This document shows positions 4,212 through 21,953 of a stretch of 64,000 bases of DNA, in pieces; positions within the stretch are counted from its first letter, which is position 1, and each line of letters starts with the position of its first letter. Under the pieces are notes generated by a model, which saw only the letters and a list, made by a program, of their open reading frames with translations, ran no database searches and was not told where the DNA came from. The position numbers and the translations under genes were made by a program. Source of the DNA: a virus; IMG/VR virus record IMGVR_UViG_3300027734_000048, positions 1 through 64,000 of that record. One strand, 5' to 3'.

Positions 4212-4979
4212 TTAAATACCCATTTGCTTGCGTTTTTCAGTAGCCGAAATAGCATGAATGTCCGCCCCCAAATCTACTTGTTCAATCTTATACCCTACAT
4301 CACGACCATATACGATATTAGTAATGTTAGGAACCTTGACAACATTTGCTGTAGGCATATCCTTATGGATATAATCACGAACTTGTTCAAAGTGCAAAGG
4401 ATCTTTCTCTGACATTCCAACTGTATGTCTTACACCAATTACAACCTGGGTATTGCGCTTTGCAGCCTCATCATATAGTGCACGGTGGCCTTCATGCCAT
4501 GGTTGGTAACGACCTAACAAAAGAACTGTGTTCTCTTTCCAGTCAAACATTCCAAATTTACGAATAACTGTAATTGCTCTTGTTGGAATCGCATCTTCAT
4601 AATCATCACCAGTATTAACTATTCTATGATCATAGTGTTCTGGATCTTCCCATAACTTATTTGTATCTTCAAAACGACCTTCTTGAATGGTATCCATCCA
4701 CACAACAACATCTGCCTCACCAAAAGCCTCACGAGTTTCTTTTGTTGGACAAACAAAGTCAACAATAACTGGCTTGTCTTGAATCTTTTCAAGAAGTCTG
4801 GCAAGTTCTCCCATTCTTCGTGCTTGCTCAATTCTGTCTTCTGGGCTAAACCCCAAATCTTTATTTAAACCAGCCCGTACCTGGTCAGCATTAACATGTA
4901 TGCCGTTTGTTCTTTCTTTAACTGCATCTGCAATTGTTGTCTTGCCTGAGCCTGGTAGCCCAATAAACTGAATGATCAT
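4212..4979 (-). CDS. cysC: adenylylsulfate-kinase-like domain fused to an HxGH nucleotidyltransferase domain
   Basis: GLPGSGKTT P-loop; NADQVRAGLNKDLGFSPEDRIEQARR APS-kinase motif; C-terminal GRYQPWHEGH; start moved to ATG 4979. Confidence 0.85.
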   Translation of the reverse strand: MIIQFIGLPGSGKTTIADAVKERTNGIHVNADQVRAGLNKDLGFSPEDRIEQARRMGELARLLEKIQDKPVIVDFVCPTKETREAFGEADVVVWMDTIQEGRFEDTNKLWEDPEHYDHRIVNTGDDYEDAIPTRAITVIRKFGMFDWKENTVLLLGRYQPWHEGHRALYDEAAKRNTQVVIGVRHTVGMSEKDPLHFEQVRDYIHKDMPTANVVKVPNITNIVYGRDVGYKIEQVDLGADIHAISATEKRKQMGI

Positions 4980-5185
4980 TCTTCTTTTCTCCAATGTATG
5001 TAAGATCTTATGTATATTGTAGCATAAGCAATAGCCATGGCGATGAAGCCATACTGTTTGGTAGATAACCCATAGGCAATCCATAATACTTCATTAACAC
5101 AAAGAATTAGCCAACCCCATATTGTTTTTTGGCCAACTAAAAAAATTCCACAAATACCTATTATTGCTAATATCCATGACCACAT
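4976..5185 (-). CDS. small multi-TM protein, PnuC/SemiSWEET-like half transporter
   Basis: 69 aa, about three hydrophobic helices, KTIWGW...LWIAYG pattern. Confidence 0.6.
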   Translation of the reverse strand: MWSWILAIIGICGIFLVGQKTIWGWLILCVNEVLWIAYGLSTKQYGFIAMAIAYATIYIRSYIHWRKEE

Positions 5186-7043: not shown

Positions 7044-7264
7044 TATCTTATTTTCCATTTCATTGTTTTGGGACCAAGATCAATTAGTTCAAACATGTGA
7101 TGCTCATATTGATCCTTTAGATCTTCATAAAGTTCTGGATTTACCAACTTTAGTTTATCCGTAACAGAGTATAACATTTCGCCATTTGCATCGATGCTAT
7201 GCATTGATATGGCACCTTGATTTAGCAAATGCTCTACCATGGCTTCTGTTTTAGGATTAATCAC
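7043..7264 (-). CDS. hypothetical protein, paralog of 6466-6807
   Basis: GEMLYSVTDKLKLVNPELY. Confidence 0.7.
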   Translation of the reverse strand: MINPKTEAMVEHLLNQGAISMHSIDANGEMLYSVTDKLKLVNPELYEDLKDQYEHHMFELIDLGPKTMKWKIR

Positions 7265-7668
7265 TTACCAGATTTCTTTCTAGCCTTAGCCAATGCATTA
7301 AAGTCTTTGACCTTGGTGTCTCCTAGATATCCCCAAGCATAACCATCATTAATCATCATGTCATTAAGGGAGATGGTGTTGCCATCTACATATACCCAGC
7401 CTAAAATGCGACCATACTTCTCAGATGAGTCCATCTTTTCAGTCTTAATAACTACAGACTTTGCATCTTTAAGATGCTTCTTTAGGTACTCTTTAGCCTC
7501 AAGACCAAGAGCCTTCTCTGCAAGATCCTTTGTGCGAGATTCAGGGGTATCAATGCCAGCCAATCTTACACGAGATGCAAATAAAATATCAAACCCTAAA
7601 TCGATAAGAACATCAATGGTATCTCCATCTACAACATTCTCTACTTTTCTTACATAGTACTCATACAT
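7261..7668 (-). CDS. thermonuclease (SNase family)
   Basis: VVDGDTID, RVRLAGIDTPES and KYGRILG. Confidence 0.93.
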   Translation of the reverse strand: MYEYYVRKVENVVDGDTIDVLIDLGFDILFASRVRLAGIDTPESRTKDLAEKALGLEAKEYLKKHLKDAKSVVIKTEKMDSSEKYGRILGWVYVDGNTISLNDMMINDGYAWGYLGDTKVKDFNALAKARKKSGK

Positions 7669-7670
7669 TT

Positions 7671-8315
7671 TTATTCTCCATTTTTCTTTAGTGTGAAACA
7701 AATATTTAATAAAATTCTCAAATCATTTTCTTTTGGTGAAAACCCAGTATGCAACTTTTTTCCATCAAAAACAACGCCCTTGCCAGCAGTTGGAGAAATT
7801 GAATTTGAAACCTTCAACTCACCAAAATTGCCAGCAGTTTTTAAAACATCAAGTATTTTTTTATCGTATACTTCTGTTACTCCATCCGAATCATTAAAGT
7901 AATAAAGAAAAACCATATGGTCTTCTATTGAATCAACATGGGGATAATTTCTAGAATCTTTTTCTTTATAAGATCTTGTTGCTATGTTAATTTTACTTCT
8001 TATAATTTTGTCATATTTTATGTTGTGCTTAAAGCAAAACTTTTCAAAAACATCTTTTACAATATCAAAATCTAATCTAGAAACAATTTGAAAATATGGT
8101 TCAGATTTTTGATCTTGCATATATACTGTTGGTGCATTTTTCCATTGCCAAGACTTATCTTTGGTTTTTTGAAAATCAATTATCTCTGGAACATATTCAG
8201 GAATCCAATTAATTTTTCCATACAAAAAACTTTGATCAGAGAATATTCTTCTTAAAAACTCATCCTGCTCTTCTTTGGTTAAAAAAGAATCATCTTCAAT
8301 AAAAAAATCACTCAT
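7671..8315 (-). CDS. 2OG-Fe(II) oxygenase-like protein
   Basis: PHVD...LYYFNDSDG...FDG-x3-H...R-x2-LN. Confidence 0.8.
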   Translation of the reverse strand: MSDFFIEDDSFLTKEEQDEFLRRIFSDQSFLYGKINWIPEYVPEIIDFQKTKDKSWQWKNAPTVYMQDQKSEPYFQIVSRLDFDIVKDVFEKFCFKHNIKYDKIIRSKINIATRSYKEKDSRNYPHVDSIEDHMVFLYYFNDSDGVTEVYDKKILDVLKTAGNFGELKVSNSISPTAGKGVVFDGKKLHTGFSPKENDLRILLNICFTLKKNGE

Positions 8316-8532
8316 TTAATCTGGATCTTTCATCAACAACTTCTATTATAAAATTCATCATTTTTGCATAACCAACAGCATTATCCATGATTTTATTATA
8401 ATGATGGGAACAAAAGAGTAGTTCTCCAGATTTTCCAATTACCTTCACATACGCCTGTGCAGAACAAGAGTCGCATCTGTCTGTGGCGTCTAGCATCCAC
8501 AGTTTTGAGTCTTCTGAAATCATTGTATTCAT
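8308..8532 (-). CDS. small zinc-binding protein (DRCD-x-C...LLFCSHH)
   Basis: Cys/His motif of a kind I associate with actinobacteria and their phages. Confidence 0.7.
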   Translation of the reverse strand: MNTMISEDSKLWMLDATDRCDSCSAQAYVKVIGKSGELLFCSHHYNKIMDNAVGYAKMMNFIIEVVDERSRLNE

Positions 8533-8538
8533 AGTATA

Positions 8539-8724
8539 CTACCTCTTTCTATTATCGGTGGAATAAAAACCAGAACCGTTAAAAACTGCTCCTACATTAG
8601 AGTATACACGAACCAAAGTAGAATTGCAAATTTCGCAACTATATCCAGGATCATTATCCTTAATAGATCTTTCTTTTATATACCTTTGTGCACAAGGCAT
8701 ACAATCATATTCATATACTGCCAC
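8539..8724 (-). CDS. FmdB-family zinc-ribbon protein
   Basis: YEYDC-x2-C...C-x2-C...F-x-GSGFYSTD. Confidence 0.85.
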   Translation of the reverse strand: MAVYEYDCMPCAQRYIKERSIKDNDPGYSCEICNSTLVRVYSNVGAVFNGSGFYSTDNRKR

Positions 8725-9442
8725 TAGAAACCTCCATGTAAAGTTTTTGTAATTTTGAAAAATCTTCTTCTTCTTCTATTTGATTAGTTAAAGTTTCATA
8801 CATTTTTGTTTTTTGAATATCATGTGGACCATGATGCTTCATATTTGCAACTTTTTGATTTGATAGGCTACCAAAAGTTTTAGCATCCCTATTTTTAATT
8901 ACATCTTTAACCTCTTCTGATGAAACTTTGTTTTCATAATCTATATTTATTTTTGATAAAACAAAACTAATTATACTATTTGGATCATTAACTAATTTAT
9001 CAAACTCAATTACAAAAGCATTTTTATTTTGTATTTGAATAGTTAAATAATCTAAATAGTTTTCAGTTATGCCCCTGATCATTCCTTTAAAATTATAGTG
9101 CGCTCCATTTAGTACATTCTCTATTGTTATATCATCTTGTGAGTTAGAAAGTGCAATAAAGCAATAGGACTTGATGACTTCTATTGGACTTCTTACATTT
9201 GTAAACTGAATAAAACTATCAGATTGCTCCAACTTTAGCATAGATGGTATATGAAAAAATGGATGCAAAATAAATGTTTTATTTGTATCTAAAACAAGTG
9301 TTTTATTGGGTAATTTTTTTAAATTATTTTGATTCTTAATATTTTTAGTCAGTGCGCTATCAATACACTCTGCTAAAAAATTATTACCAGATCTTGGTAC
9401 AGAATTAAAAACAATATCAGTTGAAGTAAAAAACTTTGACAA
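8711..9442 (-). CDS. sulfotransferase-family protein
   Basis: 5'-PSB-like SVPRSGNNFL, 3'-PB-like VRSPIEVIKS, and FDKLVNDP. Confidence 0.7.
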   Translation of the reverse strand: MSKFFTSTDIVFNSVPRSGNNFLAECIDSALTKNIKNQNNLKKLPNKTLVLDTNKTFILHPFFHIPSMLKLEQSDSFIQFTNVRSPIEVIKSYCFIALSNSQDDITIENVLNGAHYNFKGMIRGITENYLDYLTIQIQNKNAFVIEFDKLVNDPNSIISFVLSKINIDYENKVSSEEVKDVIKNRDAKTFGSLSNQKVANMKHHGPHDIQKTKMYETLTNQIEEEEDFSKLQKLYMEVSSGSI

Positions 9443-9547
9443 TTACTTCTTCTTTGCTTTTACTGTCCAATAAGGCAGTTTTAGATTGTCTCCGCCCCAT
9501 TCATATCCAAGTGCTTTAACAACAAACTTAATAATCTTAATACGCAT
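9443..9547 (-). CDS. small hypothetical protein (34 aa, MRIKIIKFVVKALGYEWGG...)
   Basis: TAATG coupling to the upstream gene; manual translation. Confidence 0.55.
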   Translation of the reverse strand: MRIKIIKFVVKALGYEWGGDNLKLPYWTVKAKKK

Positions 9548-9747
9548 TACTTTACCCCCTTACCAAACTTTGCCCAAATTCTTTCATGAACAAAGTATCC
9601 AAGCGACTCAATACCTATGTATAACAATGCCCCAAGACTAGCATATTCCCATTCTCCAGTAAATGCATAGATTATCCCAGCAAGTACTGTTAAGTGAAAT
9701 AATTCCCAAGTAAAAGTTTTAATTGATGTTCGTCTAGTTGATTCCAT
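9547..9747 (-). CDS. DUF2061-family small membrane protein (second copy)
   Basis: RTSIKTFTW...YFVHERIW. Confidence 0.75.
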   Translation of the reverse strand: MESTRRTSIKTFTWELFHLTVLAGIIYAFTGEWEYASLGALLYIGIESLGYFVHERIWAKFGKGVK

Positions 9748-10545
9748 TTATGCCCCCAAAATTTTTTTATATGTTGTAGCATCAACAATGCCCGTAACAG
9801 GTAAACCAGATTTCTTTTGGAAAGCCTTTACTGCCTTATCTGTGCCTGGACCAAACTCACCATCTGCAGTAAGCCCAAGTGCTTCTTGAACCTTCTTAAC
9901 AGAAGATCCCTTTGCTCCTACCTTAAATGGCTTAAACTCTTTCTTAGCAGCAGGTACTGCATTAGTAGGCTTTGATGTCTTTACGGGTGCATCAGATGAT
10001 CCTACCTTTGAAAGTAGTGGAAGGTTTTCTTCACCAGCATAGACTGGACGACCCCAACCAACTATTGCATTCATTAACTTAGGCTTATTGTTCTTTACAT
10101 ATGCACGAGTCTTTTCTACGCACATTCCGCCATTTCGTTGGTCACCCTTAGCAGTCCCTGAAGTATTTCCTTCAATAACTTGAATAGTTCCATCGCCATT
10201 ATTTTTAATGCAAATACCAACATGTGAGATACGATTTACTCCATCATCTGGAAAATCAAAATAGATCCAGTCTCCTGGAGTTGGATCATCATTACGAGCA
10301 TCGGCCCAGCGGTCATTTTTCTTAAACCAATCAGATGCTGCAACAGTTGCTGCGCTCTTTGGATAGGTCTTAGGATCTAGCCCTGCAGTGAATGCACACC
10401 ATGAAACAAATGACTGGCACCATGGAAGGAAGTTTGCACCTGTCCACTTGCCATACTTTGTTTCGTTATCTTTAGGGCCTTCGATGGTCCCAATTTCTTT
10501 CTTTGCAACCTCAACGATTGCTTCTAGACTTCCTTTTACTGTCAT
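9748..10545 (-). CDS. endolysin: CHAP domain plus C-terminal peptidoglycan-binding domain
   Basis: PWCQSFVSW, HVGI, IEGNT; VKKVQEALG...DGEFGPGT-x2-AVKAFQ. Confidence 0.92.
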   Translation of the reverse strand: MTVKGSLEAIVEVAKKEIGTIEGPKDNETKYGKWTGANFLPWCQSFVSWCAFTAGLDPKTYPKSAATVAASDWFKKNDRWADARNDDPTPGDWIYFDFPDDGVNRISHVGICIKNNGDGTIQVIEGNTSGTAKGDQRNGGMCVEKTRAYVKNNKPKLMNAIVGWGRPVYAGEENLPLLSKVGSSDAPVKTSKPTNAVPAAKKEFKPFKVGAKGSSVKKVQEALGLTADGEFGPGTDKAVKAFQKKSGLPVTGIVDATTYKKILGA

Positions 10546-10567
10546 TTTATTCTCCTTTTCTTATATA

Positions 10568-10576
10568 ATTATATCA
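10568..10576 (-). promoter_or_regulatory. extended -10 promoter TGATATAAT for the endolysin
   Basis: consensus box followed by an AAGGAG SD. Confidence 0.6.
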
Positions 10577-11233
10577 AACTTTGTTTAAATCTTCAAGGTA
10601 TCTTGTATTAAAGCGATTAGCCCAAAAAGACTGATAAACAGTGCCTTGGTCCCCATTGTCCTTTTCAATAGTTAGATGTGGATGCTTGCTTATTAAATAA
10701 TTTATTTGACCAAGTTTTGGCTCTTGAAATCTTGTATCAACATACTTATATAAAGTATTTGGGTTTTCAGCAATGTAATTTTTTACTTCTTTATCTAGAT
10801 CAATAGGGCCATTATGCTGTTGATTGTCTGAACAACTCCAATAAAACTTTATATCTTTAAACTTATTTTCAAGTTCTGCTAAACTATTAACAAAGTCTTC
10901 AAAAATGAAATCAGAATTTTGTACTTCTGAAAACAAAATAAAAATAACATCTGGAGAATATTCAGAAAAATATTCTTTTGCATTTTTTATAACATTTTTA
11001 TAATCTATATCTTTATCATCTAATGCAAAAAAATCAGAAACCAGAGTGTGCTTTCTTAGTAGTTTGTCTAGTCTAAATGGCCAAACATTTTTAAAAGTTT
11101 CATCGTCATGCATTAGATCTGAAGATCCAAAATATGCTACATGCAGGTTACCACCATGATCTTTTTTAAATTCTTCACACATATAACCATGACTATTTTT
11201 TGTTCCATCATATTTGCTTAGTACTTCTGTCAT
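10574..11233 (-). CDS. hypothetical protein (possible SGNH-like fold)
   Basis: YFGSSD...WP...PDVIFILF; coupled to the carbamoyltransferase. Confidence 0.6.
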   Translation of the reverse strand: MTEVLSKYDGTKNSHGYMCEEFKKDHGGNLHVAYFGSSDLMHDDETFKNVWPFRLDKLLRKHTLVSDFFALDDKDIDYKNVIKNAKEYFSEYSPDVIFILFSEVQNSDFIFEDFVNSLAELENKFKDIKFYWSCSDNQQHNGPIDLDKEVKNYIAENPNTLYKYVDTRFQEPKLGQINYLISKHPHLTIEKDNGDQGTVYQSFWANRFNTRYLEDLNKV

Positions 11234-12672
11234 TTATTATAATCCATTCCTGTTAAAATTTTAAAGTTGTATTCTTTTTCCCAATTTAAAATATCGTTGT
11301 TATCGTTTAATAAAGGTTGGCCCTTAATATTTAGACTTGTATTTAATAATAATGGTACACCTGTTTTAAGATAAAACTTATTAATAGTCCTCCACAAACC
11401 TCTATGCTGATGCTTGTTTACAGTTTGCACCCTAGATGTACCGTCAGCATGGACTACAGATGGAATCTTTTCTGGTTGTAAACACTTAACTGTGTACTGC
11501 ATATAAGGGCTTGCAAAGTCCATATCAAACCACTTAGAGGCACACTCTTCCATAACTACTGGGGCAAACGGTCTAAACAACTCTCTTTGTTTAATTAAAT
11601 TAACTTTATCTTTAATGTTTGGATCTCTTGGATCTGCAAGAATACTTCTATTTCCCAATGCTCTTGGACCGTATTCTGCTCTTCCTGTTGCTACTGCCAC
11701 TATTCCATCTTTTAATATACCGTCCACAATTTGCTGAACAGGATACTCTCCTCCAAGATCATAACCAAGATACGGAGTCTTCCAATCAAGATGTTTTCCG
11801 TATAAGGCTGCTGCTGCTCCCAAAGAACTACCAGCATCACCAGGGTTTGGCATGATCCAAATCATATCAAATATATTCCATAGTAATGTATTGGCTGATG
11901 AGTTAAGTGCACACCCGCCCATAAATACCAAATTCTTTTTTCCTGTAATTGAATAGGCCATATGCATAAAGTCATTAAGTCTTTGCTGGTATACAAATTG
12001 AACTGCTGCTGCTATATCAAATTTATCTTGCTCAGATTCAATCAACCCCCAGTCAGTAATTCCTTTATGAAAGTTATACTTTTGTTTGGTATACGAAGGG
12101 AAATATTCATCAACTTTTCTATAATACTTTTTCCAGTCTCCATAAGCAGCCATTCCCATCATAATGTATTCTTCTTGGTTTGGCATCAGGCCTATGAGTT
12201 GAGTAAATGCTGAATAGAACAATCCAAAACTAACAGGATAGTTTTGCTTATATTTTAATTTAATTTTATCGCCTTCACCCACCCAAATTGTGGAGGTATT
12301 ATATTCACCAATTGCATCAAGAACTACAATCACTGCATCATTAAATGCACTTGTATAATACCCCGCTGCTGCGTGAGAATAGTGATGAGTAAAAGATTTT
12401 CTTGGAATTCCAGGAATTTCAAACCTTGGCTTCCACTCTCCAGAACCACCCTTTAAAGCAAGCCTAGAGGCCTTTAGAAGGGGCTTTTCATAGTAGGCTA
12501 CATGATCAGGCATTCCATACTGTAAAGCATCTTTTATTAAACTATCATTCACATACCAATCATTTTTTTGCTTACTATATCTTTCAGCATGCCCTGCAAA
12601 TAATATTTTTCCATCTTTAATTAAGGATACAGAAGCATCATGCGATGTTTCATTTATTCCAAGAACTATCAT
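11230..12672 (-). CDS. carbamoyltransferase, NodU/CmcH/TobZ family
   Basis: HDAS, ERYSK-x-K, HHYSHAA, GGCALN, GDAGSSLGAA, EYGPRALGNRSILADP, RE-x-FRPFAP, LNTSLN. Confidence 0.96.
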   Translation of the reverse strand: MIVLGINETSHDASVSLIKDGKILFAGHAERYSKQKNDWYVNDSLIKDALQYGMPDHVAYYEKPLLKASRLALKGGSGEWKPRFEIPGIPRKSFTHHYSHAAAGYYTSAFNDAVIVVLDAIGEYNTSTIWVGEGDKIKLKYKQNYPVSFGLFYSAFTQLIGLMPNQEEYIMMGMAAYGDWKKYYRKVDEYFPSYTKQKYNFHKGITDWGLIESEQDKFDIAAAVQFVYQQRLNDFMHMAYSITGKKNLVFMGGCALNSSANTLLWNIFDMIWIMPNPGDAGSSLGAAAALYGKHLDWKTPYLGYDLGGEYPVQQIVDGILKDGIVAVATGRAEYGPRALGNRSILADPRDPNIKDKVNLIKQRELFRPFAPVVMEECASKWFDMDFASPYMQYTVKCLQPEKIPSVVHADGTSRVQTVNKHQHRGLWRTINKFYLKTGVPLLLNTSLNIKGQPLLNDNNDILNWEKEYNFKILTGMDYNK

Positions 12673-13337
12673 TCTTCACCATTGGATAATCTTTTAGTGT
12701 CAAAATCAATATTGTGATACCAGTTTGGCAGAGCATATCTTGGACCTTTTGTAATTGGATATACCTCATGAACATATAAAAAGTTTGAAGGGAAAAACAA
12801 AATACTACCAGCAGCAGGTTTAAACTTAATTCCTGAATGTTTAAATTCTATTTCCCCACCTTCATAATCATCATTGAGGTAAAGCAATACAGATAAAACA
12901 CGACTACTAACACCTTGATCTTGATGGGCTGGAAGATGTCCACTTTCATCATATTTTAATAGATGCATTGTGTGTTCTCTAGACTTAATGTTTTTTTCTG
13001 CAAACGGATAAATTGCAGTTGAGTAGTGATTTAATGTTGAGTCTAATGCCCCAAATAATTCAGAAGATATACTTAACTGCTCATTAAAGTATGGGTCACA
13101 ACTAGAAATATCCTTTACCTGTGGAATAAGTTTTTGCCAACAAAACATAAGTTCATTTGAGCCATTGTTATATGTCCACTTTGTCCAAGGACCTACGCAT
13201 GTATTCTCCAACTGACCATCATCGACATACAGTTTGTCCAAATTTTCTATTTTTTCTATAATTGATTTAGGATCTTTAATTACATCTTTATAGTAAACTA
13301 ATCCTAAATCTAATATCTCAAAATTAAAGTTTTGCAA
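12669..13337 (-). CDS. 2OG-Fe(II) oxygenase, prolyl-4-hydroxylase-like
   Basis: HQD...RVLSVLLYLNDDYEGGEI...HEV...RY; start placed at TTG 13337 after a GGGAG SD. Confidence 0.9.
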   Translation of the reverse strand: MQNFNFEILDLGLVYYKDVIKDPKSIIEKIENLDKLYVDDGQLENTCVGPWTKWTYNNGSNELMFCWQKLIPQVKDISSCDPYFNEQLSISSELFGALDSTLNHYSTAIYPFAEKNIKSREHTMHLLKYDESGHLPAHQDQGVSSRVLSVLLYLNDDYEGGEIEFKHSGIKFKPAAGSILFFPSNFLYVHEVYPITKGPRYALPNWYHNIDFDTKRLSNGEE

Positions 13338-13926
13338 GATGGTACTCCCTTGCCATCCATTTAGGATTTTTTTCACCTATAATAAAGTCTGGATCTGCAT
13401 GTTTTGGTAAACTTGTATGCATGTATAAACCAGTAAATCTGTGACCGCTTGTTACTTCTGTAATACCATGAATATATTCGCTTCCAGAACTTGGGAAAAA
13501 TACTGCAGAGTATTGCTTTGGTTGATACTCAAATCCTTGATTTGGAAAATAAATTTTTCCTCCAGTGTATTCAGATTCATGGTTTAAATACATTATTGTG
13601 CTCCACTCAATAAAGGGTTCTGGACCTTGAGCATCTAAGTGCAACTCTCCCTTAGTACCTTCTGTCCAATGTGAACCAAATGATTTGTATACATATATTG
13701 GGTTTAAAAAACCATTGTCTTGTCTATGTACCTCATTTGAAATATTTCCATACTTAACCATTATATCCATAACTATTTTATTATATGGCAATGATGTTCC
13801 TCCATATCTTTGTGCATAGTATGCGGGATAAGGATTTCTTTCTGCAAATGGATCTGTCTGCTGATCGATCAAAGTCTTTGCATCTTCTGGACTAATAAAG
13901 TTTTCTATTATTTTTATTCTGTGCAT
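13324..13926 (-). CDS. 2OG-Fe(II) oxygenase, prolyl-4-hydroxylase-like
   Basis: HLD...STIMYLN...Y-x-GG-x-IYF...HGI...RFT. Confidence 0.88.
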   Translation of the reverse strand: MHRIKIIENFISPEDAKTLIDQQTDPFAERNPYPAYYAQRYGGTSLPYNKIVMDIMVKYGNISNEVHRQDNGFLNPIYVYKSFGSHWTEGTKGELHLDAQGPEPFIEWSTIMYLNHESEYTGGKIYFPNQGFEYQPKQYSAVFFPSSGSEYIHGITEVTSGHRFTGLYMHTSLPKHADPDFIIGEKNPKWMAREYHLAKL

Positions 13927-14786
13927 TTTTCCTCCTCAACCATTATATCACTTATGTGATATATAGAATTATAGCCATTGTGAAATCTGCCAACACCTTT
14001 ACGATCTAAATTAAAGTCTTGAGTCCTAAATATGTACTCAACATCATTAGTCTCAAATTTCATTATTTTTAAATTTTCAATAATAATATTGTGAAAATCG
14101 TTAAAATTTTTTGCAACATCTGTATTAAAGTATTCATATATTTTTTTATAGTTATGGTTTTCAGAATATGGCAAATAGTCTTTTTTTAATTTTGTTCCCT
14201 GATTATAAACTTTATTTCCAACAGAAAATATTCTAATATTGTTTTTTATTAAAGTTAAAGTTAGCAATAAATCTTGACCGTATTTTTTTAAAGTTTTATT
14301 ATTAAATTCAAATAAACTTAAAATATTTTTTTTATCTATTGCAATAAAATCCATATCTATCCAATTAGTTTCAGAAACAAAATCTGTATGACTTCCTAAG
14401 TTTTTTAAATAAAAACCATCAATAGATAATTTTGCATTTTTGTTTCCAGAAAAAACAACATTTGGAATATTTTTAAAATTATCAACTAGGTCAATGTCCC
14501 AATCTTTTTTCAACTCTATTGAATCTGAAACCTCAACATAGTAGTCATAATCTTTTTCTATTATATTTTTTCTATATTCTGTAATTGGAAAATAAGAATC
14601 CCAATTTATATGATTATATTTTACTGAAGGTATATTTTTAAAATATTCCGTTCTGTTTATATTGTTTTGATCATACACATAGATCCTTATCTTGTTTTTA
14701 TTGCTGCATGAATCTACAATATTTGTAGCAATATTAACTAAATTATTATTTTTATATGAATATAAAAATATTACTATTTCTTTCAT
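13914..14786 (-). CDS. GT-A fold glycosyltransferase-like protein resembling GT60 (Skp1 hydroxyproline GlcNAc transferase)
   Basis: IFLYSYK...IYVYDQ...YYVEVSDSIELKKDWD resembles the recalled GT60 pattern IF-x-S-x2-SYRD...Q...YYLQIDSHMRF-x2-DWD. Confidence 0.55.
   Translation of the reverse strand: MKEIVIFLYSYKNNNLVNIATNIVDSCSNKNKIRIYVYDQNNINRTEYFKNIPSVKYNHINWDSYFPITEYRKNIIEKDYDYYVEVSDSIELKKDWDIDLVDNFKNIPNVVFSGNKNAKLSIDGFYLKNLGSHTDFVSETNWIDMDFIAIDKKNILSLFEFNNKTLKKYGQDLLLTLTLIKNNIRIFSVGNKVYNQGTKLKKDYLPYSENHNYKKIYEYFNTDVAKNFNDFHNIIIENLKIMKFETNDVEYIFRTQDFNLDRKGVGRFHNGYNSIYHISDIMVEEEKCTE
13942..13950 (-). promoter_or_regulatory. extended -10 promoter TGATATAAT inside the 3' end of the glycosyltransferase gene
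   Basis: followed by GAGGAGG and the ATG at 13926. Confidence 0.55.
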
Positions 14787-15445
14787 TATGCCAATGGAAT
14801 ATAATGTTGTTCTTCTGCCTTTTCAATAAATCTTAAAGGAATTATATCGTAAGCAACAGTAATTCTTGGACCATCCCAATCCCAATTTCCTTGTGCATGT
14901 GGATGCCCCATCTCAGAAATAATTAATCTATTATCAATATTTTTGTTTTCAAAAATAAGTTCTTCTTTATTTTCTATCTTATAAAATGTTGAGGAAGGCT
15001 CTGCCTTAACACAGTAGTATCCATGAAAGTTTGGTGCCCAAGGGCCACCGTGATCGTGCCAGTCAAGTTTACCAACCTTTGAATGATTTATATTAAACCA
15101 ACCCTGAATCATATACTTTTCTTTTGCAAAGTCTATTCCGTAATATTCACAGGCCTCTTTTACTAGATCTCTAACTCCAAGATAAAGATTGTATATTTCT
15201 TCGCTGTGAAACTGAAAAACATTATACTCTCTCCACTTTACTGTAGAAATACTTCCAGACTCAAGCCAGTATTCCTGTTTTTCTGAATGTAATTTTGATA
15301 CGCCAAAAACCTCACCTTGCTCAATCTGATCATATTTTTTGTGCAAGAATTTAGACATCTTGTCTAGATCATTATTTAAAAACTTTTCAAAAAACTTATG
15401 AGGCTTATCATATAGTTTTGGCATGCTGTAAAAGTCTTGATTCAT
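14786..15445 (-). CDS. putative 2OG-Fe(II) oxygenase
   Basis: WFNIN...HDH...GYYCV...H...RITVAYD. Confidence 0.8.
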   Translation of the reverse strand: MNQDFYSMPKLYDKPHKFFEKFLNNDLDKMSKFLHKKYDQIEQGEVFGVSKLHSEKQEYWLESGSISTVKWREYNVFQFHSEEIYNLYLGVRDLVKEACEYYGIDFAKEKYMIQGWFNINHSKVGKLDWHDHGGPWAPNFHGYYCVKAEPSSTFYKIENKEELIFENKNIDNRLIISEMGHPHAQGNWDWDGPRITVAYDIIPLRFIEKAEEQHYIPLA

Positions 15446-15466
15446 TTTTTCTCCCTTTAGTTTTTC

Positions 15467-16198
15467 TTAATATCTTTTTTTATCCCATGCAAACTTTTTA
15501 TAGTGTGCAGTAATATGTGATCTTCTCTGTTCTTCTAAAATCTTATGTTTTTCATAAGATTCCTTTGACATATCTATGTCAATTTCCCAATCATCTCTCT
15601 TGATTGGTATCATTTGCATTATTGGTGTGCCCTGCTCTATTGTACCAAAAAAGTCTCTTTTCAGAAAAAATGGTATAAATACTGGAAGACCCCAGACATC
15701 TGCGTCTACAATTCCAGATGGTACATAGAATGGCAAGTCAAAACGGTTAAGCGGGTGAGTAATTAATATTGAGTATCCTGGTGGTGTTTCGTAATACCAG
15801 TTCATCTTAAATCCAAAATGTATAGGATGGCAATCTTTTGGTATTGCCATATCAACATTAAATCTTTTATCTATAATTGGAATATCTTTTTTCCATGACA
15901 CAACTGGTATATTGTCATCATCAAAATCAACATGTACATCATCCTCTAATCTGTAAATGTAACCAGCAGTCATTGAGTCTAAAAATGGTACACAAAGTTT
16001 TGTTGAAACATCTGATCCATCAGAGCCACGATCATTAATTGGAAAAAGATTTTTCATATCATTGCTAGTTCCATATTTATAGCCGACAAGATCTTTGTAC
16101 CAATCTGGAACCATCCTGCTTGCACTTACTGGTTCTACCAGCATGTCTATAAACTTAGGGTCATTTGATGCTGGAACAAACTTTACCTTATTGTTCAT
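15467..16198 (-). CDS. conserved phage protein (DUF6065-like)
   Basis: PDWYK, KLCVPFLDSMTAGY, TPPGYS-x-LITHPLNR, GTPIMQMIPIKRDDW. Confidence 0.65.
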   Translation of the reverse strand: MNNKVKFVPASNDPKFIDMLVEPVSASRMVPDWYKDLVGYKYGTSNDMKNLFPINDRGSDGSDVSTKLCVPFLDSMTAGYIYRLEDDVHVDFDDDNIPVVSWKKDIPIIDKRFNVDMAIPKDCHPIHFGFKMNWYYETPPGYSILITHPLNRFDLPFYVPSGIVDADVWGLPVFIPFFLKRDFFGTIEQGTPIMQMIPIKRDDWEIDIDMSKESYEKHKILEEQRRSHITAHYKKFAWDKKRY

Positions 16199-16853
16199 TA
16201 TATTCTTTCTTTATTTGCTCAATTGTCTCTGAATCTTTTATAATTATATCACATATGGGTGTTCCTATATCTATGATGCCGTATCTTTCATCTTTCATGT
16301 GTTTACCAGTTTTATTTATAAAAAAATGAATCCACTTTGTGTCTAATATATGTTTTGAAAAATCAACTTTATTAAAATAAATAACATCTGTTATTAAATT
16401 AAACACAGTTTCGTCACCAAAATTATCTGATATTTTGCATTCAATATCTTTATTAATTATCCATGGAAGATAAAATTTATACAACGCATTAAAACTAATA
16501 TTTTGGCTATCAGCAGTAATTTCTGATGGATAGAACTGTCTTTGCCAGCATTTATCAAGTGCGTAGAGTCCATTATACTTTGGTTCAACCCAGATTTCTG
16601 CATGTGTTTTTTGACGCAAAATAGCATGATCATCATTAATGATTAACTCTGGCTTATTGTGAAATATTTCTGCATACCTATTTACTGGAACTAAAAACTT
16701 ATTGATGTAACTTTGATCAAATACATGACCAGAAACGCCCCATTCTGGATAAAGTCTACTGCCTATGACCAAATCAGAAAAACTTTTGTTTGCAGAATTA
16801 ATCCAATACTCAGACCCCACTATACCATTTTTAGATAAATCATCATTTGGCAT
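16188..16853 (-). CDS. hypothetical protein, possibly distantly related to 15467-16198
   Basis: KFYLPW...GIIDIGTPICDI echoes KMNW...GTIEQGTPIMQM. Confidence 0.6.
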   Translation of the reverse strand: MPNDDLSKNGIVGSEYWINSANKSFSDLVIGSRLYPEWGVSGHVFDQSYINKFLVPVNRYAEIFHNKPELIINDDHAILRQKTHAEIWVEPKYNGLYALDKCWQRQFYPSEITADSQNISFNALYKFYLPWIINKDIECKISDNFGDETVFNLITDVIYFNKVDFSKHILDTKWIHFFINKTGKHMKDERYGIIDIGTPICDIIIKDSETIEQIKKEYNEQ

Positions 16854-17579
16854 TTAGTTGTCCTTAAACATAAAGTTACTAACAACAAGAACTATCCTTG
16901 TGTTATCATTTATTTGTTTTATTTTATCATGGTTTGCTACAAAATCTATATCACCAATCACAGAAAACTCTGTAGGTAGTGTCATATTACAACAAATTGC
17001 AATCTGTTTTTTTACTTTTTCAAAACTATAATTTTTAATTAAATAATTAAGTACTTCCTGAAGGGTATCTGCATATAATGGCGTTACAAATGATCCTGCA
17101 GCATCCTTATGTTTCTTTAAGTTTTCTATAACTGTATGAATACCATGCGATATAGTGATATCTCCACCAACAAAACCACTAATTACATAGGCATTAAGGA
17201 ATGCGTTTGGTCCAGGTACAACCACATACTCAAAGTTATTTTTAATACATTCCTGAATAAACTGACTTCCTGGATCTGCAACACCAATAAGTCCTTCTGA
17301 TGCTACAAGCAATACTGTTTTTCCAGACTCAATATATTCTTTAAAAAGTTTTATTTGATTTGAATCAGCATAAGTTGAATCTTTGCTTTTTAAAACAACT
17401 ATGTCTTTTTTAATTTTAAGTTGTTTTATTATGTTTATAGCATTAATCTCTGAATCATCACTAAAAATAACATCTGAACTAACAAAATAGTCTAGCATTC
17501 TTTGAGACATATCGGCAATATTACCAATATGCATTGATCCAACAATTAATTTGCCAATCTTTGCTGGGGTGGCAGGCAT
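16854..17579 (-). CDS. rsmI: RsmI-like SAM-dependent methyltransferase (tetrapyrrole methylase family); start uncertain
   Basis: GKLIVGSMHIGNIADMS-x-R, LVASEG-x3-VADPG and VVVPGPNAFL-x-A match the RsmI pattern. Confidence 0.75.
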   Translation of the reverse strand: MPATPAKIGKLIVGSMHIGNIADMSQRMLDYFVSSDVIFSDDSEINAINIIKQLKIKKDIVVLKSKDSTYADSNQIKLFKEYIESGKTVLLVASEGLIGVADPGSQFIQECIKNNFEYVVVPGPNAFLNAYVISGFVGGDITISHGIHTVIENLKKHKDAAGSFVTPLYADTLQEVLNYLIKNYSFEKVKKQIAICCNMTLPTEFSVIGDIDFVANHDKIKQINDNTRIVLVVSNFMFKDN

Positions 17580-17636
17580 CGATCCTGCGACATCCGAATT
17601 AACAGTTCGGCACTCTACCATCTGAGTTACACCCCA
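17564..17636 (-). tRNA. tRNA-Asn(GTT); CCA not encoded
   Basis: acceptor stem TGGGGTG/CACCCCA; D arm; anticodon arm CCGAA-CTGTTAA-TTCGG; T arm GCAGG-ATCGATG-CCTGC. Confidence 0.92.
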
Positions 17637-17643
17637 AAACCTT

Positions 17644-18429
17644 TTATGCTGTTACTTTTACTGGCTTGCCAACAATAGACCCTATAGAAACATATTGTGC
17701 TGCAACAGATGCTGTAGCAGAAGATGTTGTTAGTGGAATAGTCTTAAACAGTGTTGATGAAAAGTTGTCACCAATCAAAGGGAGTCTAACAAGATTTGCA
17801 GAGTATTTAACTGATGTTGAATCAGCAAAACCTGGTGCAGTTACAGCATTTACTGATGAAAGGCATGCTGGATAATCAATCTTTGTGCTTCCAAATGTAT
17901 TTCCTGCTGAGGCAAATACTTGAATTCCCTTAGAGTTAAGAGAACTAATTAAGGATTTAATCATTGCATCTGCAGCATCAACTGTGTATGGTGCAGAAGA
18001 TGATGGCATGCATGGCTTTGATGGACTATTGAAGTATCTTGAAAATGATACTGCACCAATATTTTGAGAATTACTATCTACCCACTTCAAAGCCTCAATA
18101 AACATTACTGGTGTTACATCTGCAACAGACTTTGAACTTGCTGGTGCTGATCTAAGAGCAATAATTTTAATACTTGAATTTTGACGCTTTGCAACTTCAA
18201 CCATTGCATTGCCATGATTAATGTTATTTCCAATACTTGAATTTGTAATAGTAACAATATCTGTGCATGAAGATTTTGTTTCTACAACAATGCATGAAAC
18301 ATTTGAACCTAAAACCTTAGAATCAAAATAACTATCAATAATGACAAGTGACTTTGAATCTGCTCCATGTGCTTGAACTGGTACTACAACTGAAAATAAT
18401 ACTGCTGCTAGTGCTACGATCTTTTTCAT
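17644..18429 (-). CDS. secreted subtilisin-like (S8) serine peptidase
   Basis: signal peptide; IIDS (Asp), NHG-x-AM (His), ASAGN (oxyanion Asn), TTSSATA (Ser). Confidence 0.75.
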   Translation of the reverse strand: MKKIVALAAVLFSVVVPVQAHGADSKSLVIIDSYFDSKVLGSNVSCIVVETKSSCTDIVTITNSSIGNNINHGNAMVEVAKRQNSSIKIIALRSAPASSKSVADVTPVMFIEALKWVDSNSQNIGAVSFSRYFNSPSKPCMPSSSAPYTVDAADAMIKSLISSLNSKGIQVFASAGNTFGSTKIDYPACLSSVNAVTAPGFADSTSVKYSANLVRLPLIGDNFSSTLFKTIPLTTSSATASVAAQYVSIGSIVGKPVKVTA

Positions 18430-18446
18430 TTTATTCCTTTTCATTT

Positions 18447-18650
18447 TTACGATATCATCAATCTGACGACATGTTGGCATGGGTCGCCACCTGCTTCCCA
18501 TTCTTCTGCTTCTTCTTCACCTATGTATTCATATCCACCATCATGGGTATTGCAATATGGTGGTGTTACCCAACCACGATCAATACCGTTTGACAACCAG
18601 ATACCAAATTCTTGTTCTTCAGGTGACAAATCATCGTGTGTGTGATTCAT
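18447..18650 (-). CDS. hypothetical protein
   Basis: C-x-THDG...GGDPC-x-HVVR; ATG 6 nt after TATACT. Confidence 0.75.
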   Translation of the reverse strand: MNHTHDDLSPEEQEFGIWLSNGIDRGWVTPPYCNTHDGGYEYIGEEEAEEWEAGGDPCQHVVRLMIS

Positions 18651-19554: not shown

Positions 19555-19782
19555 TTAGTCCTCCTTTCTTAGCGGGATTGTGATAAGCCATATAACTGTT
19601 GTTGCAAGTACTGCAAGTCCAACGATGTCTCTTGCTGATCCCGTCAAAGTTAGCCATGCGATAAAGAAGCCAAGGAGGGTAAATGCCTGTGCAATTAATT
19701 CCATTCCTGCATCTTTAAACCATTTAATTAATCCCTTTAGCATTTTGCCTACCAGGTTGATGGCCTTATTGATTATCTTCAT
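19555..19782 (-). CDS. small two-TM membrane protein
   Basis: hydrophobic hairpin; AGGAGG SD. Confidence 0.7.
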   Translation of the reverse strand: MKIINKAINLVGKMLKGLIKWFKDAGMELIAQAFTLLGFFIAWLTLTGSARDIVGLAVLATTVIWLITIPLRKED

Positions 19783-21953
19783 TTGTTCCTCCTTATGACT
19801 GCCCCTGCAATTTGTGATGCAATGACCACTGGGACAATTACTTCTTGCGCTTTCTCTCTCTGATCATCTGTCATATCCATACCTAACTCAGAGAAATTAG
19901 ATAGGAGTTCTGTAACATCCACTTCAAATACTGCTCCAAGTGGGTCTGCTAAGAATGCTTCTGTTTGTACTTCTGTTACTGCATCTGCTAATGTAAATGG
20001 CATTGGTGCTTCTCCTGCATCCCCCGCTCTTTCTGCGAACTCAACAAATGCTGAGGCTACTGCAGGGTTTGACTTCATTGCCTCTGCTACCTTTGCAACC
20101 TCACCTGCTGAAATACCAAGGTCTGATGCAAGTTCTTTCTTTGCTTCCTGAGTCAAAGACTTAAGAGTCTGGCTTACTGCTGCTGTCTGTTCTGGAGAAA
20201 GTTTAACTAACTTATTATCCTTGCTTGTAAGGTTAGCAATAACTCCAGACAAATCTTCTGCTGTTCCGCTACCCTTTTCTGGGATAAGTGCTGCTAACTC
20301 TGCATCCTTGATGACTGGATCAATGTTTTCTGCTGGTTTAAAATCTGGTCTTGGAAGTGGTTTAACCTCTGTAGAAGGTTCAATAGGAGGCTCTGGTTTG
20401 GGTTCTGGCTTTGGTTCAGGACTTGGGGCAGGGGTAGGCTTAGGCTTTTCTGGTTTTGTTGGCTCAGGCTTAGGTTCTTCTGGTTTAGGCTGTTCTGGTT
20501 TTGGACCTGGCTGTGTTGGCTTTGGGCCTGGCTCTTCTGTTCCAGTAGCATTGCTTGGCTTAGGTTCAGGCTTTTCTGTTGGTGGTGGGGAAGGCTTTGG
20601 CTTTTCTGGTTCAACAGTTGGTTTTGGTTCTGGCTTAGGCTGGTTTGCTGCAGCATTGGCTGCTGCTTGAGCAATTGCTCTTTGAATTTCTCTTTGTGAC
20701 TGCTCATCATAGTAACGCCATGCGTCATCAATTGCGCTATTGACATCATTGACTGCATTATTAAAATCATTTATAGCATTATTTTTTTCAGACAAGGCAT
20801 CTTCTGTATCATTTACTGCATTATCATACTCAGACTCTTTATTAATTAATGTTTGATTTAATGAGTTTAGTATTGCAACCTGTTGACTATATACATTTAG
20901 TTTATCATTATATTCTGCTGAGGCATTATTATAGTCTTGCTGTGCTGCATTTCTTGTTTCAAGTGCTTGGTTATAAGCATCTGTTTGTGCTTGTGTTGGC
21001 CCAGAGCCAGAAGAAAATGTATCAAGATTACAACTAAAGTTTTGTCCCCACACTCTTGGATTTCCAGCATAGTCGCAACCTGCACCCGTCCAACCTAAAC
21101 TGCCAGATGAACCATAGGGTATTCCCCATCCAAGATGATAAGATCCTGGTCCTCCACCGTTGTACCACCAAATCTCTACATCAAATGTTTTATCTGTGGT
21201 TACATCATATATTGGAGAGTATTGACTCCATGTTGTTCCCTGTTCCTTCCAGTTATTAATGGCAAGGTTTCCATCAATATACATCCTAAAACCATCATCT
21301 GTGTAACCTGCAAATTTTGTTGATGTGAACCATTCTGGAACTGTTATCTGTCCAGTAAATTTAACTATAAAGTTTTCATATCTATTACCACAAACTGGAA
21401 GGCTCATATAGTTTGAGTTCCAAGTACCAGAACAAAGCACATATCCTGGGGTAGCAACATTACCCTGTCTAACAAGAGTATAAACAGTATATGCCAAACC
21501 TTCTCCTCCAGCACTCTGCATATTTGATTGCGCCGTTTGAAGGTTGATGTTGGCTATGTTGAGAGCATCCTGTGCATCGTTCTTATCTTGTAGGGCATCC
21601 TCTTTATAATTAAAAGAAAGTTCTACTGTTACTGTCTGGCCATCTACATTTGACTGGGCAAGTTCTACTGCATCTAGGGCTAACTCTTCTGCCTCTACTG
21701 CATCATCATAGTCTGCAATTGCCTCATCCCTGACATCCCGCAGATTTTTGGCATACATAAACTTATTTTCTGCTATGTCAATCATATTAATTAGACCATC
21801 TTTGTAGTCTAATTTATCTACTGCGCTATTAAGGTTCTCGATCTGCTTGGCTGCAACTGTGAGGGGATCATCAGAATGAGCGTCTTGCGGGGATATGAGG
21901 AGCCAACCAAAGGCCAATACTGATGCCACTGTTATGCGTAATAATCTTTTAAT
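19779..21953 (-). CDS. exported surface protein: signal peptide, coiled coil, PA14-like domain, Pro-rich stalk, C-terminal hydrophobic anchor; start probably ATT 21953 (ORF track uses GTG 21929)
   Basis: FIVKFTGQI...TDDGFRMYIDG...WWYNGGG PA14 motif; PKPE repeats; ends VIVPVVIASQIAGAVIRRNK. Confidence 0.8.
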   Translation of the reverse strand: MKRLLRITVASVLAFGWLLISPQDAHSDDPLTVAAKQIENLNSAVDKLDYKDGLINMIDIAENKFMYAKNLRDVRDEAIADYDDAVEAEELALDAVELAQSNVDGQTVTVELSFNYKEDALQDKNDAQDALNIANINLQTAQSNMQSAGGEGLAYTVYTLVRQGNVATPGYVLCSGTWNSNYMSLPVCGNRYENFIVKFTGQITVPEWFTSTKFAGYTDDGFRMYIDGNLAINNWKEQGTTWSQYSPIYDVTTDKTFDVEIWWYNGGGPGSYHLGWGIPYGSSGSLGWTGAGCDYAGNPRVWGQNFSCNLDTFSSGSGPTQAQTDAYNQALETRNAAQQDYNNASAEYNDKLNVYSQQVAILNSLNQTLINKESEYDNAVNDTEDALSEKNNAINDFNNAVNDVNSAIDDAWRYYDEQSQREIQRAIAQAAANAAANQPKPEPKPTVEPEKPKPSPPPTEKPEPKPSNATGTEEPGPKPTQPGPKPEQPKPEEPKPEPTKPEKPKPTPAPSPEPKPEPKPEPPIEPSTEVKPLPRPDFKPAENIDPVIKDAELAALIPEKGSGTAEDLSGVIANLTSKDNKLVKLSPEQTAAVSQTLKSLTQEAKKELASDLGISAGEVAKVAEAMKSNPAVASAFVEFAERAGDAGEAPMPFTLADAVTEVQTEAFLADPLGAVFEVDVTELLSNFSELGMDMTDDQREKAQEVIVPVVIASQIAGAVIRRNK
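20330..20643 (-). repeat. Pro-rich low-complexity PKPE/PEPK coding repeats
   Basis: seen directly in the translation. Confidence 0.8.

Follow-up and report, generated by a model that had tools for sequence, protein, structure and literature searches.

The 64,000-nucleotide stretch analysed here (the window) comprises bases 1-64000 of the IMG/VR virus record IMGVR_UViG_3300027734_000048, which is 116,566 bp long and rated 100% complete by CheckV. Its minus strand carries a cassette of six genes (16188-16853 to 12669-13376) encoding two oxygenases of the prolyl 4-hydroxylase (P4H) type, a glycosyltransferase (GT), a DUF6065-like protein, a protein with an invariant His cluster, and the protein U221; related cassettes were found in 78 viral loci. 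Our preferred explanation, which we hold tentatively, is that the cassette is a phage module for the hydroxylation and O-glycosylation of protein, with carbamoylation and possibly sulfation as lineage-specific additions. An earlier model-made reading of the sequence (the first-pass annotation) had described the interval 8711-16853 as a single assembly line that makes a hydroxyl, glycosylates it and decorates the sugar by means of a carbamoyltransferase and a sulfotransferase. The pairing of P4H-type enzymes with a GT60-like glycosyltransferase proved to be real, but fixed carbamoyl and sulfo steps are not part of the core.

The folds and families of the proteins, their intact catalytic residues, the conserved synteny and the genomic contexts are directly supported; from these we infer in what order the reactions run, which residue is the acceptor, which sugar is used and what the substrate is. 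The six core genes would constitute a conserved protein-modification module, in which the two P4H-type oxygenases hydroxylate side chains, most likely of proline, in a phage-encoded and probably virion-associated protein. The GT60/GT27-like glycosyltransferase would then move a sugar from a nucleotide sugar onto the hydroxyl so formed, much as Gnt1 modifies hydroxyproline; alternatively, its acceptor might be a nearby Ser or Thr, in the manner of polypeptide N-acetylgalactosamine (GalNAc)-transferases. The His-cluster and DUF6065-like proteins may be accessory components. In the lineage of the window the glycan or hydroxyl might undergo further, optional steps, namely O-carbamoylation by the product of 11230-12672 and sulfation by that of 8711-9442, with 3'-phosphoadenosine 5'-phosphosulfate (PAPS) provided through 4212-5084.

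Conserved core and variable additions

IMG/VR was scanned with an alignment of 5 GT sequences, which yielded the 78 viral loci at GT identities of 27-83%. Genes were counted per locus by tblastn of the window proteins at E<=1e-5, a measure under which paralogs cross-match. DUF6065-like genes are present in 78/78 loci, U221 in 77/78, each P4H gene in 74/78 and the phrog_2696 (His-cluster) gene in 59/78. Assignment of each open reading frame (ORF) to its best match gave similar counts of 77 for U221, 77 for the DUF6065-like gene (with a second paralog in 55), 59 for phrog_2696, 72 for P4Hb, 71 for P4Ha and 30 for the carbamoyltransferase; several of the absences are due to contigs that end within the locus. 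Almost everywhere the genes keep the order U221–DUF6065-like–(phrog_2696)–GT–P4Hb–P4Ha. Variants place the carbamoyltransferase gene between the P4H genes (L052, L053, L066, L068, L077) or a TP_methylase gene between GT and P4Hb (L065, L073-L075), and two loci (L014, L054) are without the P4H pair after the GT. Elsewhere, the TP_methylase homolog is found on the opposite strand.

Since the core order is kept in 78 loci, the pairing of hydroxylases with a GT is a conserved module. Genes outside this core are patchy: the carbamoyltransferase occurs in 31/78 loci, the APS-kinase-like gene in 24/78, the TP_methylase gene in 19/78, the gene at 10574-11233 in 4/78 and the sulfotransferase candidate in 3/78. 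The last is confined to the three closest relatives of the window (L002-L004), and the carbamoyltransferase is restricted to loci with a window-like context, being found in 0/34 loci of a second context described below. The co-occurrence expected by the first-pass annotation was thus observed for the hydroxylases and the GT but not for the carbamoyl- and sulfotransferase, which are accessory, lineage-specific extras beyond the conserved core.

The region could in principle be no functional unit but a hypervariable island, in which accessory genes without relation to one another have become neighbours by chance. Patchiness downstream of P4Ha (31, 4 and 3 of 78 loci) would fit such an island, as would the at least five 2-oxoglutarate (2OG) oxygenase paralogs dispersed over the genome, including P4H-type genes at 2128-2829, 68569-69090 and 82682-83299, and scans for promoters and terminators that were at chance level (89 vs 84±8 and 14 vs 8.9±3.4, respectively) and defined no operon. 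However, the order and strand of six genes are retained across the 78 loci, whose GT identities fall to 27% and which represent two genomic contexts. Chance adjacency is consequently very improbable overall, and for the core it is already largely refuted.

Predicted activities of the encoded proteins

The two P4H-like oxygenases recognized by the first-pass annotation both match 2OG-FeII_Oxy_3 (PF13640) above its cut-off of 27 bits (P4Ha, 1e-16 and 62.1 bits; P4Hb, 3.8e-7 and 31.4 bits). The HxD...H...R signature is intact: the iron triad and the 2OG-binding Arg (H151, D153, H203, R213) are invariant in 42/42 sequences drawn from both paralog groups. When the family profile was compared with the PDB, prolyl 3-hydroxylase 1 (8.5e-10) and B. 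anthracis P4H (5e-8) ranked ahead of PiuC-type hydroxylases (~1e-6) and of chain 5c5t, named 'Prolyl 4-hydroxylase' (4.5e-4), whereas Tet-like dioxygenases reached merely 3-4e-3. The nearest solved structures, prolyl 3- and 4-hydroxylases, would suit a proline of a protein as the oxygenase substrate, but PiuC-type hydroxylases match as well.

For the glycosyltransferase (13914-14786), searches of Pfam (0 families at E<=0.1), PHROG, NCBIfam and PDB sequences gave no match, and a PDB profile search with the GT family gave nothing meaningful. Only four relatives came up in a word-indexed search; their alignment, used as the query of an exhaustive HMMER search, retrieved 158 representatives at E<=1e-3, 84 of them at <=1e-30, which are mostly ~280 aa long. 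Among 95 aligned family members, 26 match PF11397 'Glycosyltransferase (GlcNAc)' (best 2.7e-8), which we take to be the Pfam family of Gnt1, and 18 match Glycos_transf_2. The AlphaFold2 model (pLDDT 94.1, pTM 0.89) has a GT-A fold. Foldseek returned at least 500 PDB matches at E<=1e-3, with GT-A enzymes among the matches listed; the best are polypeptide GalNAc-transferases (E 4e-9 to 1e-8, TM-score on query 0.59-0.64), and the next are KfiA, mimivirus R699 and the human LH3/ColGalT1 complex. In BFVD the top match is a member of its own family (4.6e-24, TM-score 0.81), and the name 'Glycosyltransferase, GlcNAc' is borne by 5 of the first 11. The GT60-like label given on first pass is thereby partly supported, through the fold of the window protein and the Pfam matches of its relatives, and the model appears nearest to polypeptide O-glycosyltransferases.

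It had been cautioned that this protein may be inactive or divergent, as SDSI stands where the GT60 motif was expected. The DXD position reads S87-D88-S89 in a family column pattern of S-D-[D/N/S]; D88 is kept in 71/95 members, of which overall 40 have D, 15 have N and 11 have S at position 89. Because S-D-S recurs as a minority variant of this pattern, it is a family trait and no sign of decay in the window copy. Five further residues (D39, D63, D97, H211, D248) are conserved in at least 90% of the family. No relative of the GT was obtained by tblastn against 50,697 deposited phage genomes, nor by scanning cellular genomes for its pattern, where 210 matches included 0 relatives and gave no clue to the host; we therefore regard the family as unexplored enzyme space.

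Polypeptide GalNAc-transferases, which we believe to be family GT27, carry out mucin-type O-glycosylation on Thr and Ser within Pro-containing repeats. They share the GT-A fold with the phage GT and provide its best structural match, but are only 9-12% identical to it; the phage enzyme has no lectin domain, and has S-D-S where D-x-H had been expected.

U221 has no match in Pfam, PHROG or NCBIfam, and a PDB profile search gave nothing meaningful. Comparison with the DUF6065-like family by hhalign (E 4e-4 over 195 columns, 34% probability) suggests that it is possibly a distant paralog of those proteins. The DUF6065-like protein itself matches phrog_7084 at 1.1e-35. Its label, also from the first-pass annotation, holds for the family rather than for the window copy, which is below the PF19541 threshold (E 0.03, 14.3 bits vs 26.6) while 30/50 relatives match DUF6065 (best 2.7e-7); 3/50 match the cupin EutQ. 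The family alignment contains no invariant His, so these proteins are not canonical Fe/2OG oxygenases. Sequence and profile searches of the PDB with this family gave nothing meaningful. The AlphaFold2 model (pLDDT 83.7) is a predicted beta-barrel of unassigned fold, whose three Foldseek matches at E<=1e-3 are dUTPase/dCTP-deaminase chains only, the best of them weak (E 1.6e-4, TM-score on query ~0.3). Identification as a dUTPase was rejected on account of that TM-score, the lack of a PF00692 match and the members that match EutQ. A paralog at 71862-72596 is 31% identical to the cassette copy. Full-length homologs (~31-33% identity) are also encoded by 49 haloarchaeal tailed viruses; in Haloarcula virus HJTV-2 (26724-27560) the gene lies between adhesin/tail-fibre genes and a ribonucleotide reductase (RNR), the same slot as in the phage of the window.

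The product of 14786-15445 had been labelled a 2OG oxygenase, for which no support was obtained: Pfam, NCBIfam and PDB searches returned no informative family or structure, leaving its match to phrog_2696 ('unknown function', 7.6e-11) and a cluster of residues (H130, H132, H141, H183, R194) that is invariant among 39 family sequences. This cluster would suit a cupin-like metal site. PoNi_C, matched weakly by 13/39 members (best 5e-4), was judged uninformative. No relation between the DUF6065-like and phrog_2696 families was detected by hhalign. A phrog_2696 paralog at 71221-71886 is 46% identical to the cassette copy.

The carbamoyltransferase assignment is certain (Carbam_trans_C 1.2e-52, Carbam_trans_N 2.4e-33, phrog_1601 2.8e-102), and its nearest solved structures are NovN (2e-50), GdmN and TobZ (~1e-41). 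NodU and NodH are enzymes of Nod-factor decoration, and the protein had been placed in the NodU family. NCBIfam NodU does align at 2.2e-46, but its 158.8 bits are short of the equivalog cut-off of 1000; the protein is no NodU equivalog. The sulfotransferase label for 8711-9442, the presumed NodH counterpart, was not confirmed. Pfam, NCBIfam, PHROGs and the PDB contain no sulfotransferase match, tblastn against the deposited phages found no relative, and the protein has 2 close homologs only. The sole computed support is its similarity in the ESM Atlas (0.97, 191 shared features) to Sulfotransfer_1 clusters, with the ten best named matches in one family or clan. By eye, residues ~15-21 and ~84-93 resemble what we take to be the 5'- and 3'-phosphate-binding loops. 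The protein is tentatively a sulfotransferase and, like the carbamoyltransferase, is outside the conserved cassette. The APS (adenosine 5'-phosphosulfate)-kinase-like protein matches Pfam APS_kinase at 2e-16 and APS kinases in the PDB at 6e-11 over residues 37-118 only; it could supply PAPS.

The carbamoyltransferase also brings DNA into consideration as the target, through JBP/TET-like hydroxylation of thymine or 5-methylcytosine followed by glycosylation and carbamoylation of the base, with DUF6065-like proteins as enzymes of dUTPase/dCTP-deaminase fold. In the available text of PMC8670742, a phage carbamoyltransferase found by MetaGPA makes 5-carbamoyloxymethylcytosine from 5-hydroxymethylcytosine; it has the same Pfam N- and C-terminal families as the window protein, a likeness of family and not of compared sequences. 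P4Ha does show a Tet_JBP match, at 21.2-21.3 bits below the cut-off of 34.9, and the DUF6065-like genes, whose product model has weak matches to dUTPase and dCTP deaminase, adjoin RNR here and in HJTV-2. However, the MetaGPA enzyme is accompanied by a thymidylate-synthase-like dCMP hydroxymethylase, and according to the same text (PMC8670742) the joint presence of a carbamoyltransferase with a thymidylate-synthase homolog is specific to modified contigs. No such hydroxymethylase is present in this genome: its 116.6 kb gave no match to DNA_methylase (PF00145), Thymidylat_synt (PF00303), Thy1 (PF02511) or dUTPase (PF00692) while controls were positive. Moreover, the match of the oxygenases to prolyl hydroxylases surpasses that to Tet-like enzymes by 5-7 orders of magnitude, the GT has its nearest counterparts among polypeptide GTs, 47/78 cassette loci are without the carbamoyltransferase, and the EutQ matches make the DUF6065-like fold assignment ambiguous. 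Modification of DNA is accordingly an improbable role.

Candidate substrates and related systems

In 34/78 loci the cassette directly follows homologs of the gene at 72609-73829 and of a second DUF6065-like paralog. In the phage of the window these two genes are located at 71.9-73.8 kb, between tail-fibre genes with Mtd_N domains and RNR. The encoded protein consists of fn3 domains (detected in 21/22 homologs), an aromatic tandem repeat and a C-terminal domain. A profile of the latter matches the gp41-1 intein (2e-6, with both end blocks aligned), a DNA-polymerase intein (1.5e-5) and a BIL domain (2.8e-4), although no Pfam Hint family matched the fn3-repeat proteins at E<=0.05. Some homologs begin this domain with the canonical G-C-I-[DN]-E-D-T-L; in most, Ser occupies that position. 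As its repeat, the phage of the window has (FSPFGVFG)7, and most loci beside a cassette have (FGFTP)5-11. Other homologs carry (FGA)n, (Y/F-x-FTP)n, (PFFPP)n or (GFFAPP)n repeats, and in some a Cys-rich tail replaces the Hint domain. When cassette-bearing contigs were searched elsewhere, 3/5 held an fn3-repeat homolog, and the two misses were on contigs 90% and 69% complete. The aromatic tandem-repeat linker of this protein is the leading substrate candidate and might receive the modification. Of the targets considered by the first-pass annotation, DNA is thus disfavoured, and a phage protein is favoured because the cassette follows the fn3-repeat gene in so many loci and because enzyme content tracks the repeat.

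The latter relation was assessed in 103 loci offering 5 kb or more of downstream sequence, pooled from the cassette scan and from a scan with the fn3-repeat protein, in which the best 80 of 523 viral stretches were taken. Repeat type covaries with the genes between the fn3-repeat gene and RNR. Where the repeat is (PFFPP)n or (GFFAPP)n, with a Pro fraction of 0.32-0.45, every locus (11/11) carries 5-10 P4H-like genes and lacks both phrog_2696 and the GT; where it is (FGA)n, one DUF6065-like gene is all that is present (8/8). Loci with (FGFTP)n mostly have two P4H genes, 1-3 phrog_2696, three DUF6065-like genes and a GT, and (FGVFGFSP)n loci carry phrog_2696 genes. Across all 103, the Pro fraction correlates with the number of 2OG genes (Spearman rho 0.63, p ~1e-12, relatedness ignored). 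In 37 clusters formed at 70%, FG repeats and phrog_2696 are associated (22, 1, 3, 11; Fisher p 5e-6, relatedness likewise ignored). A tree built without the repeat columns provides 3-6 independent contrasts, in which Pro-rich repeats go with at least five 2OG genes in 3/3 and the Pro-bearing FG type goes with phrog_2696 in ~4/6; zero independent pairs run in the opposite direction. The covariation is suggestive, not established. Among the (PFFPP)n relatives, L162 (also L157, L164 and L165) has 6-10 consecutive P4H-like genes directly after the fn3-repeat gene.

Alternatively, the genes might be auxiliary or serve host takeover, their products modifying an envelope glycan or protein of the host, or a metabolite, in the course of infection. 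PHROGs classes the carbamoyltransferase and the 2OG oxygenases as 'moron, auxiliary metabolic gene and host takeover', the window-like context adjoins lysis genes, putative exported proteins and the APS-kinase-like gene, and the nearest solved carbamoyltransferases use small-molecule or sugar hydroxyls. Such a role is nevertheless unlikely, given a GT whose structure and Pfam matches are closest to polypeptide glycosyltransferases, the 0 GT relatives among the cellular pattern matches, and a cassette that in 34/78 loci directly follows a fibre-associated repeat gene whose repeat is tracked by enzyme content.

Several observations weigh against a protein-modification module directed at the repeat, a reading that is drawn entirely from sequence and context. 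The DUF6065-like model resembles dUTPase/dCTP deaminase and the gene adjoins RNR here and in haloarchaeal viruses, a combination that would also suit nucleotide metabolism. The DXD-equivalent motif is degenerate throughout the GT family (D88 in 71/95), and oxygenase identity of the phrog_2696 protein has no Pfam, NCBIfam or PDB support. In the phage of the window ~55 kb separate the cassette from the repeat-protein gene. Association of repeat with GT at 70% clustering (10, 0, 19, 8) is not significant (p 0.08), and no sign test on the 3-6 independent pairs reaches 0.05 (medians 0.125-1). Finally, genome G002 has a complete cassette, yet the repeats of its fn3-repeat protein are largely (FGA)n and contain only one Pro. 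This led us to reject a rule by which modification would always fall on the Pro or Thr of the repeat. A complex prediction for the GT with residues 188-262 of the fn3-repeat protein scored 0.00 in both runs, without controls, and weighs neither way.

Hydroxylation-coupled protein glycosylation is known in eukaryotes (Skp1, collagen, plant cell-wall proteins) and in giant viruses. To our knowledge, phage virion glycosylation has been demonstrated only recently, and without hydroxylases. A more specific account, and a rather doubtful one, is that a widespread group of uncultured phages possesses a Skp1-like pathway: P4H enzymes, and in some lineages His-cluster proteins, would hydroxylate and the GT60-like enzyme would glycosylate the aromatic/Pro repeat linker of a fibre-associated, self-cleaving fn3-repeat-Hint protein. 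The enzymes would co-evolve with the repeat, (PFFPP)n corresponding to up to ten hydroxylase genes, (FGFTP)n to hydroxylases plus GT and (FGA)n to none, and the window lineage would add O-carbamoylation and sulfation. If so, a prokaryotic virus would for the first time be seen to have hydroxyproline-linked, or hydroxylation-coupled, glycosylation of protein. The preferred, more general reading of a hydroxylation and glycosylation module would likewise, if true, extend this chemistry to viruses of prokaryotes and assign a role to the 2OG-oxygenase genes that are abundant in aquatic phages but still unexplained. It would also provide an enzyme and substrate set that is directly testable, since short repeats can be made as synthetic peptides.

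The closest known arrangement is the Skp1 pathway of protists. As described in the available text of PMC6939170, a cytoplasmic P4H-type oxygenase (PhyA) is paired there with a GT-A enzyme of CAZy family GT60 (Gnt1, the Skp1 hydroxyproline N-acetylglucosamine-transferase), which attaches a sugar to the new hydroxyproline. The cassette resembles this pathway in its two adjacent P4H-type genes and in the 26/95 GT relatives that match PF11397. It differs in being viral and clustered, in having two oxygenases together with DUF6065-like and His-cluster proteins and no Skp1, in showing no later glycan-extending GTs, and in a window GT that is below every Pfam threshold. A phage precedent for virion glycosylation is found in mycobacteriophages, whose own GTs glycosylate their capsid and tail-tube proteins (PMC12619734, citing Freeman 2023); no hydroxylases are known to take part there, and the likeness is one of description, not of GT sequence comparison. 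A literature search, supplementary files not covered, found no description of the cassette or of DUF6065.

Other proteins of the phage could also be acceptors. The PA14 protein (Pfam PA14 1.5e-6), encoded ~3 kb upstream of the cassette and upstream in window-like loci too, has a ~100-aa PEPKP-type linker that is an alternative candidate. It further shows a signal-like N-terminus, coiled-coil-like Asn/Asp-rich regions and a hydrophobic C-terminus. Two collagen-like proteins (87137-87874, 87902-90028), whose G-X-Y runs reach 84 residues and have Pro and Lys in Y positions, are possible hydroxylase substrates, and the product of 83762-84997, with 15.6% Pro, is another plausible acceptor. Virus-encoded 2OG hydroxylases for repetitive viral proteins include PBCV-1 P4H and the mimivirus lysyl hydroxylase-glycosyltransferase. 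Parallels with these giant-virus enzymes are the oxygenase match to 5c5t, presumably the PBCV-1 enzyme, the occurrence of mimivirus R699 and LH3/ColGalT1 among the GT structural matches, and the collagen-like proteins themselves. In contrast, those systems belong to eukaryotic viruses, use other GT families and have no conserved six-gene cassette.

Genome setting and neighbouring genes

Megablast of 8000-17000 against the 50,697 deposited phage genomes found no near-identical DNA. Nearly all genes are on the minus strand, from ~91 kb down to 0.3 kb (Table 1).

Table 1. Coordinates of the cassette, its neighbours and other genes discussed, numbered along the source record
Feature	Position	Strand	Basis or remark
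APS-kinase-like P-loop protein	4212-5084	-	Pfam APS_kinase; beyond the interval of the first-pass annotation
Sulfotransferase-like protein (tentative)	8711-9442	-	ESM Atlas feature similarity
ORF	9547-9747	-	ORF list only
Endolysin, CHAP + PG_binding_1	9748-10545	-	Pfam, PHROGs
219-aa protein	10574-11233	-	start overlaps carbamoyltransferase stop by 4 nt
O-carbamoyltransferase, NodU/TobZ/NovN family	11230-12672	-	Carbam_trans_N + Carbam_trans_C
P4Ha, P4H-type 2OG-Fe(II) oxygenase	12669-13376	-	2OG-FeII_Oxy_3
P4Hb, P4H-type 2OG-Fe(II) oxygenase	13324-13926	-	2OG-FeII_Oxy_3
GT-A glycosyltransferase, GT60/GT27-like	13914-14786	-	AlphaFold2 + Foldseek; family matches to PF11397
phrog_2696 protein, invariant His cluster	14786-15445	-	phrog_2696
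DUF6065-like protein	15467-16198	-	phrog_7084; DUF6065 in relatives
U221	16188-16853	-	first gene of the conserved cassette
TP_methylase/RsmI-like S-adenosylmethionine (SAM) methyltransferase	16854-17621	-	Pfam TP_methylase; abuts cassette
PA14-domain protein with long Pro-rich (PEPKP-type) linker	19779-21929	-	Pfam PA14
Portal gene	~62.8-64.4 kb
Class II RNR	69.1-71.1 kb
fn3-repeat-Hint protein, 406 aa	72609-73829		after tail-fibre genes, before RNR; fn3 + intein profile matches
Tail-fibre genes with Mtd_N domains	73.9-79.7 kb

The packed minus-strand run at 8711-16853 was found exactly as first annotated in ORFs, coordinates and strand, and contains an eighth ORF (16188-16853) that had been left unnamed. 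Its ORFs overlap by 1-53 nt or are separated by gaps of 0-28 nt, except for 104 nt before 8711-9442. The endolysin label likewise agrees with the CHAP and PG_binding_1 matches. The product of 10574-11233 belongs to no family in Pfam, PHROGs or NCBIfam. The methyltransferase abutting the cassette matches Pfam TP_methylase at 4.7e-11 and TIGR00096 at 8.8e-17, the latter below its own cut-off. Directly upstream of it, 17644-18501 encodes a Ser-rich protein of 285 aa with an N-terminal signal or transmembrane segment, which is conserved in 20/78 loci.

The same late/accessory region also encodes a ferritin-like protein (1068-1664), the P4H-type oxygenase at 2128-2829, which is on the plus strand, a staphylococcal-nuclease homolog (7261-7701), a weakly 2OG-oxygenase-like protein (7671-8315) and a Cas4-like nuclease (26875-27726). 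Two very large ORFs, 46712-55117 (2801 aa) and 41738-46057 (1439 aa), are located in the structural region. At the ends of the record, the proteins encoded by 280-1062 and 115159-116406 are 54% identical over 85 residues, with a second segment at 31%.

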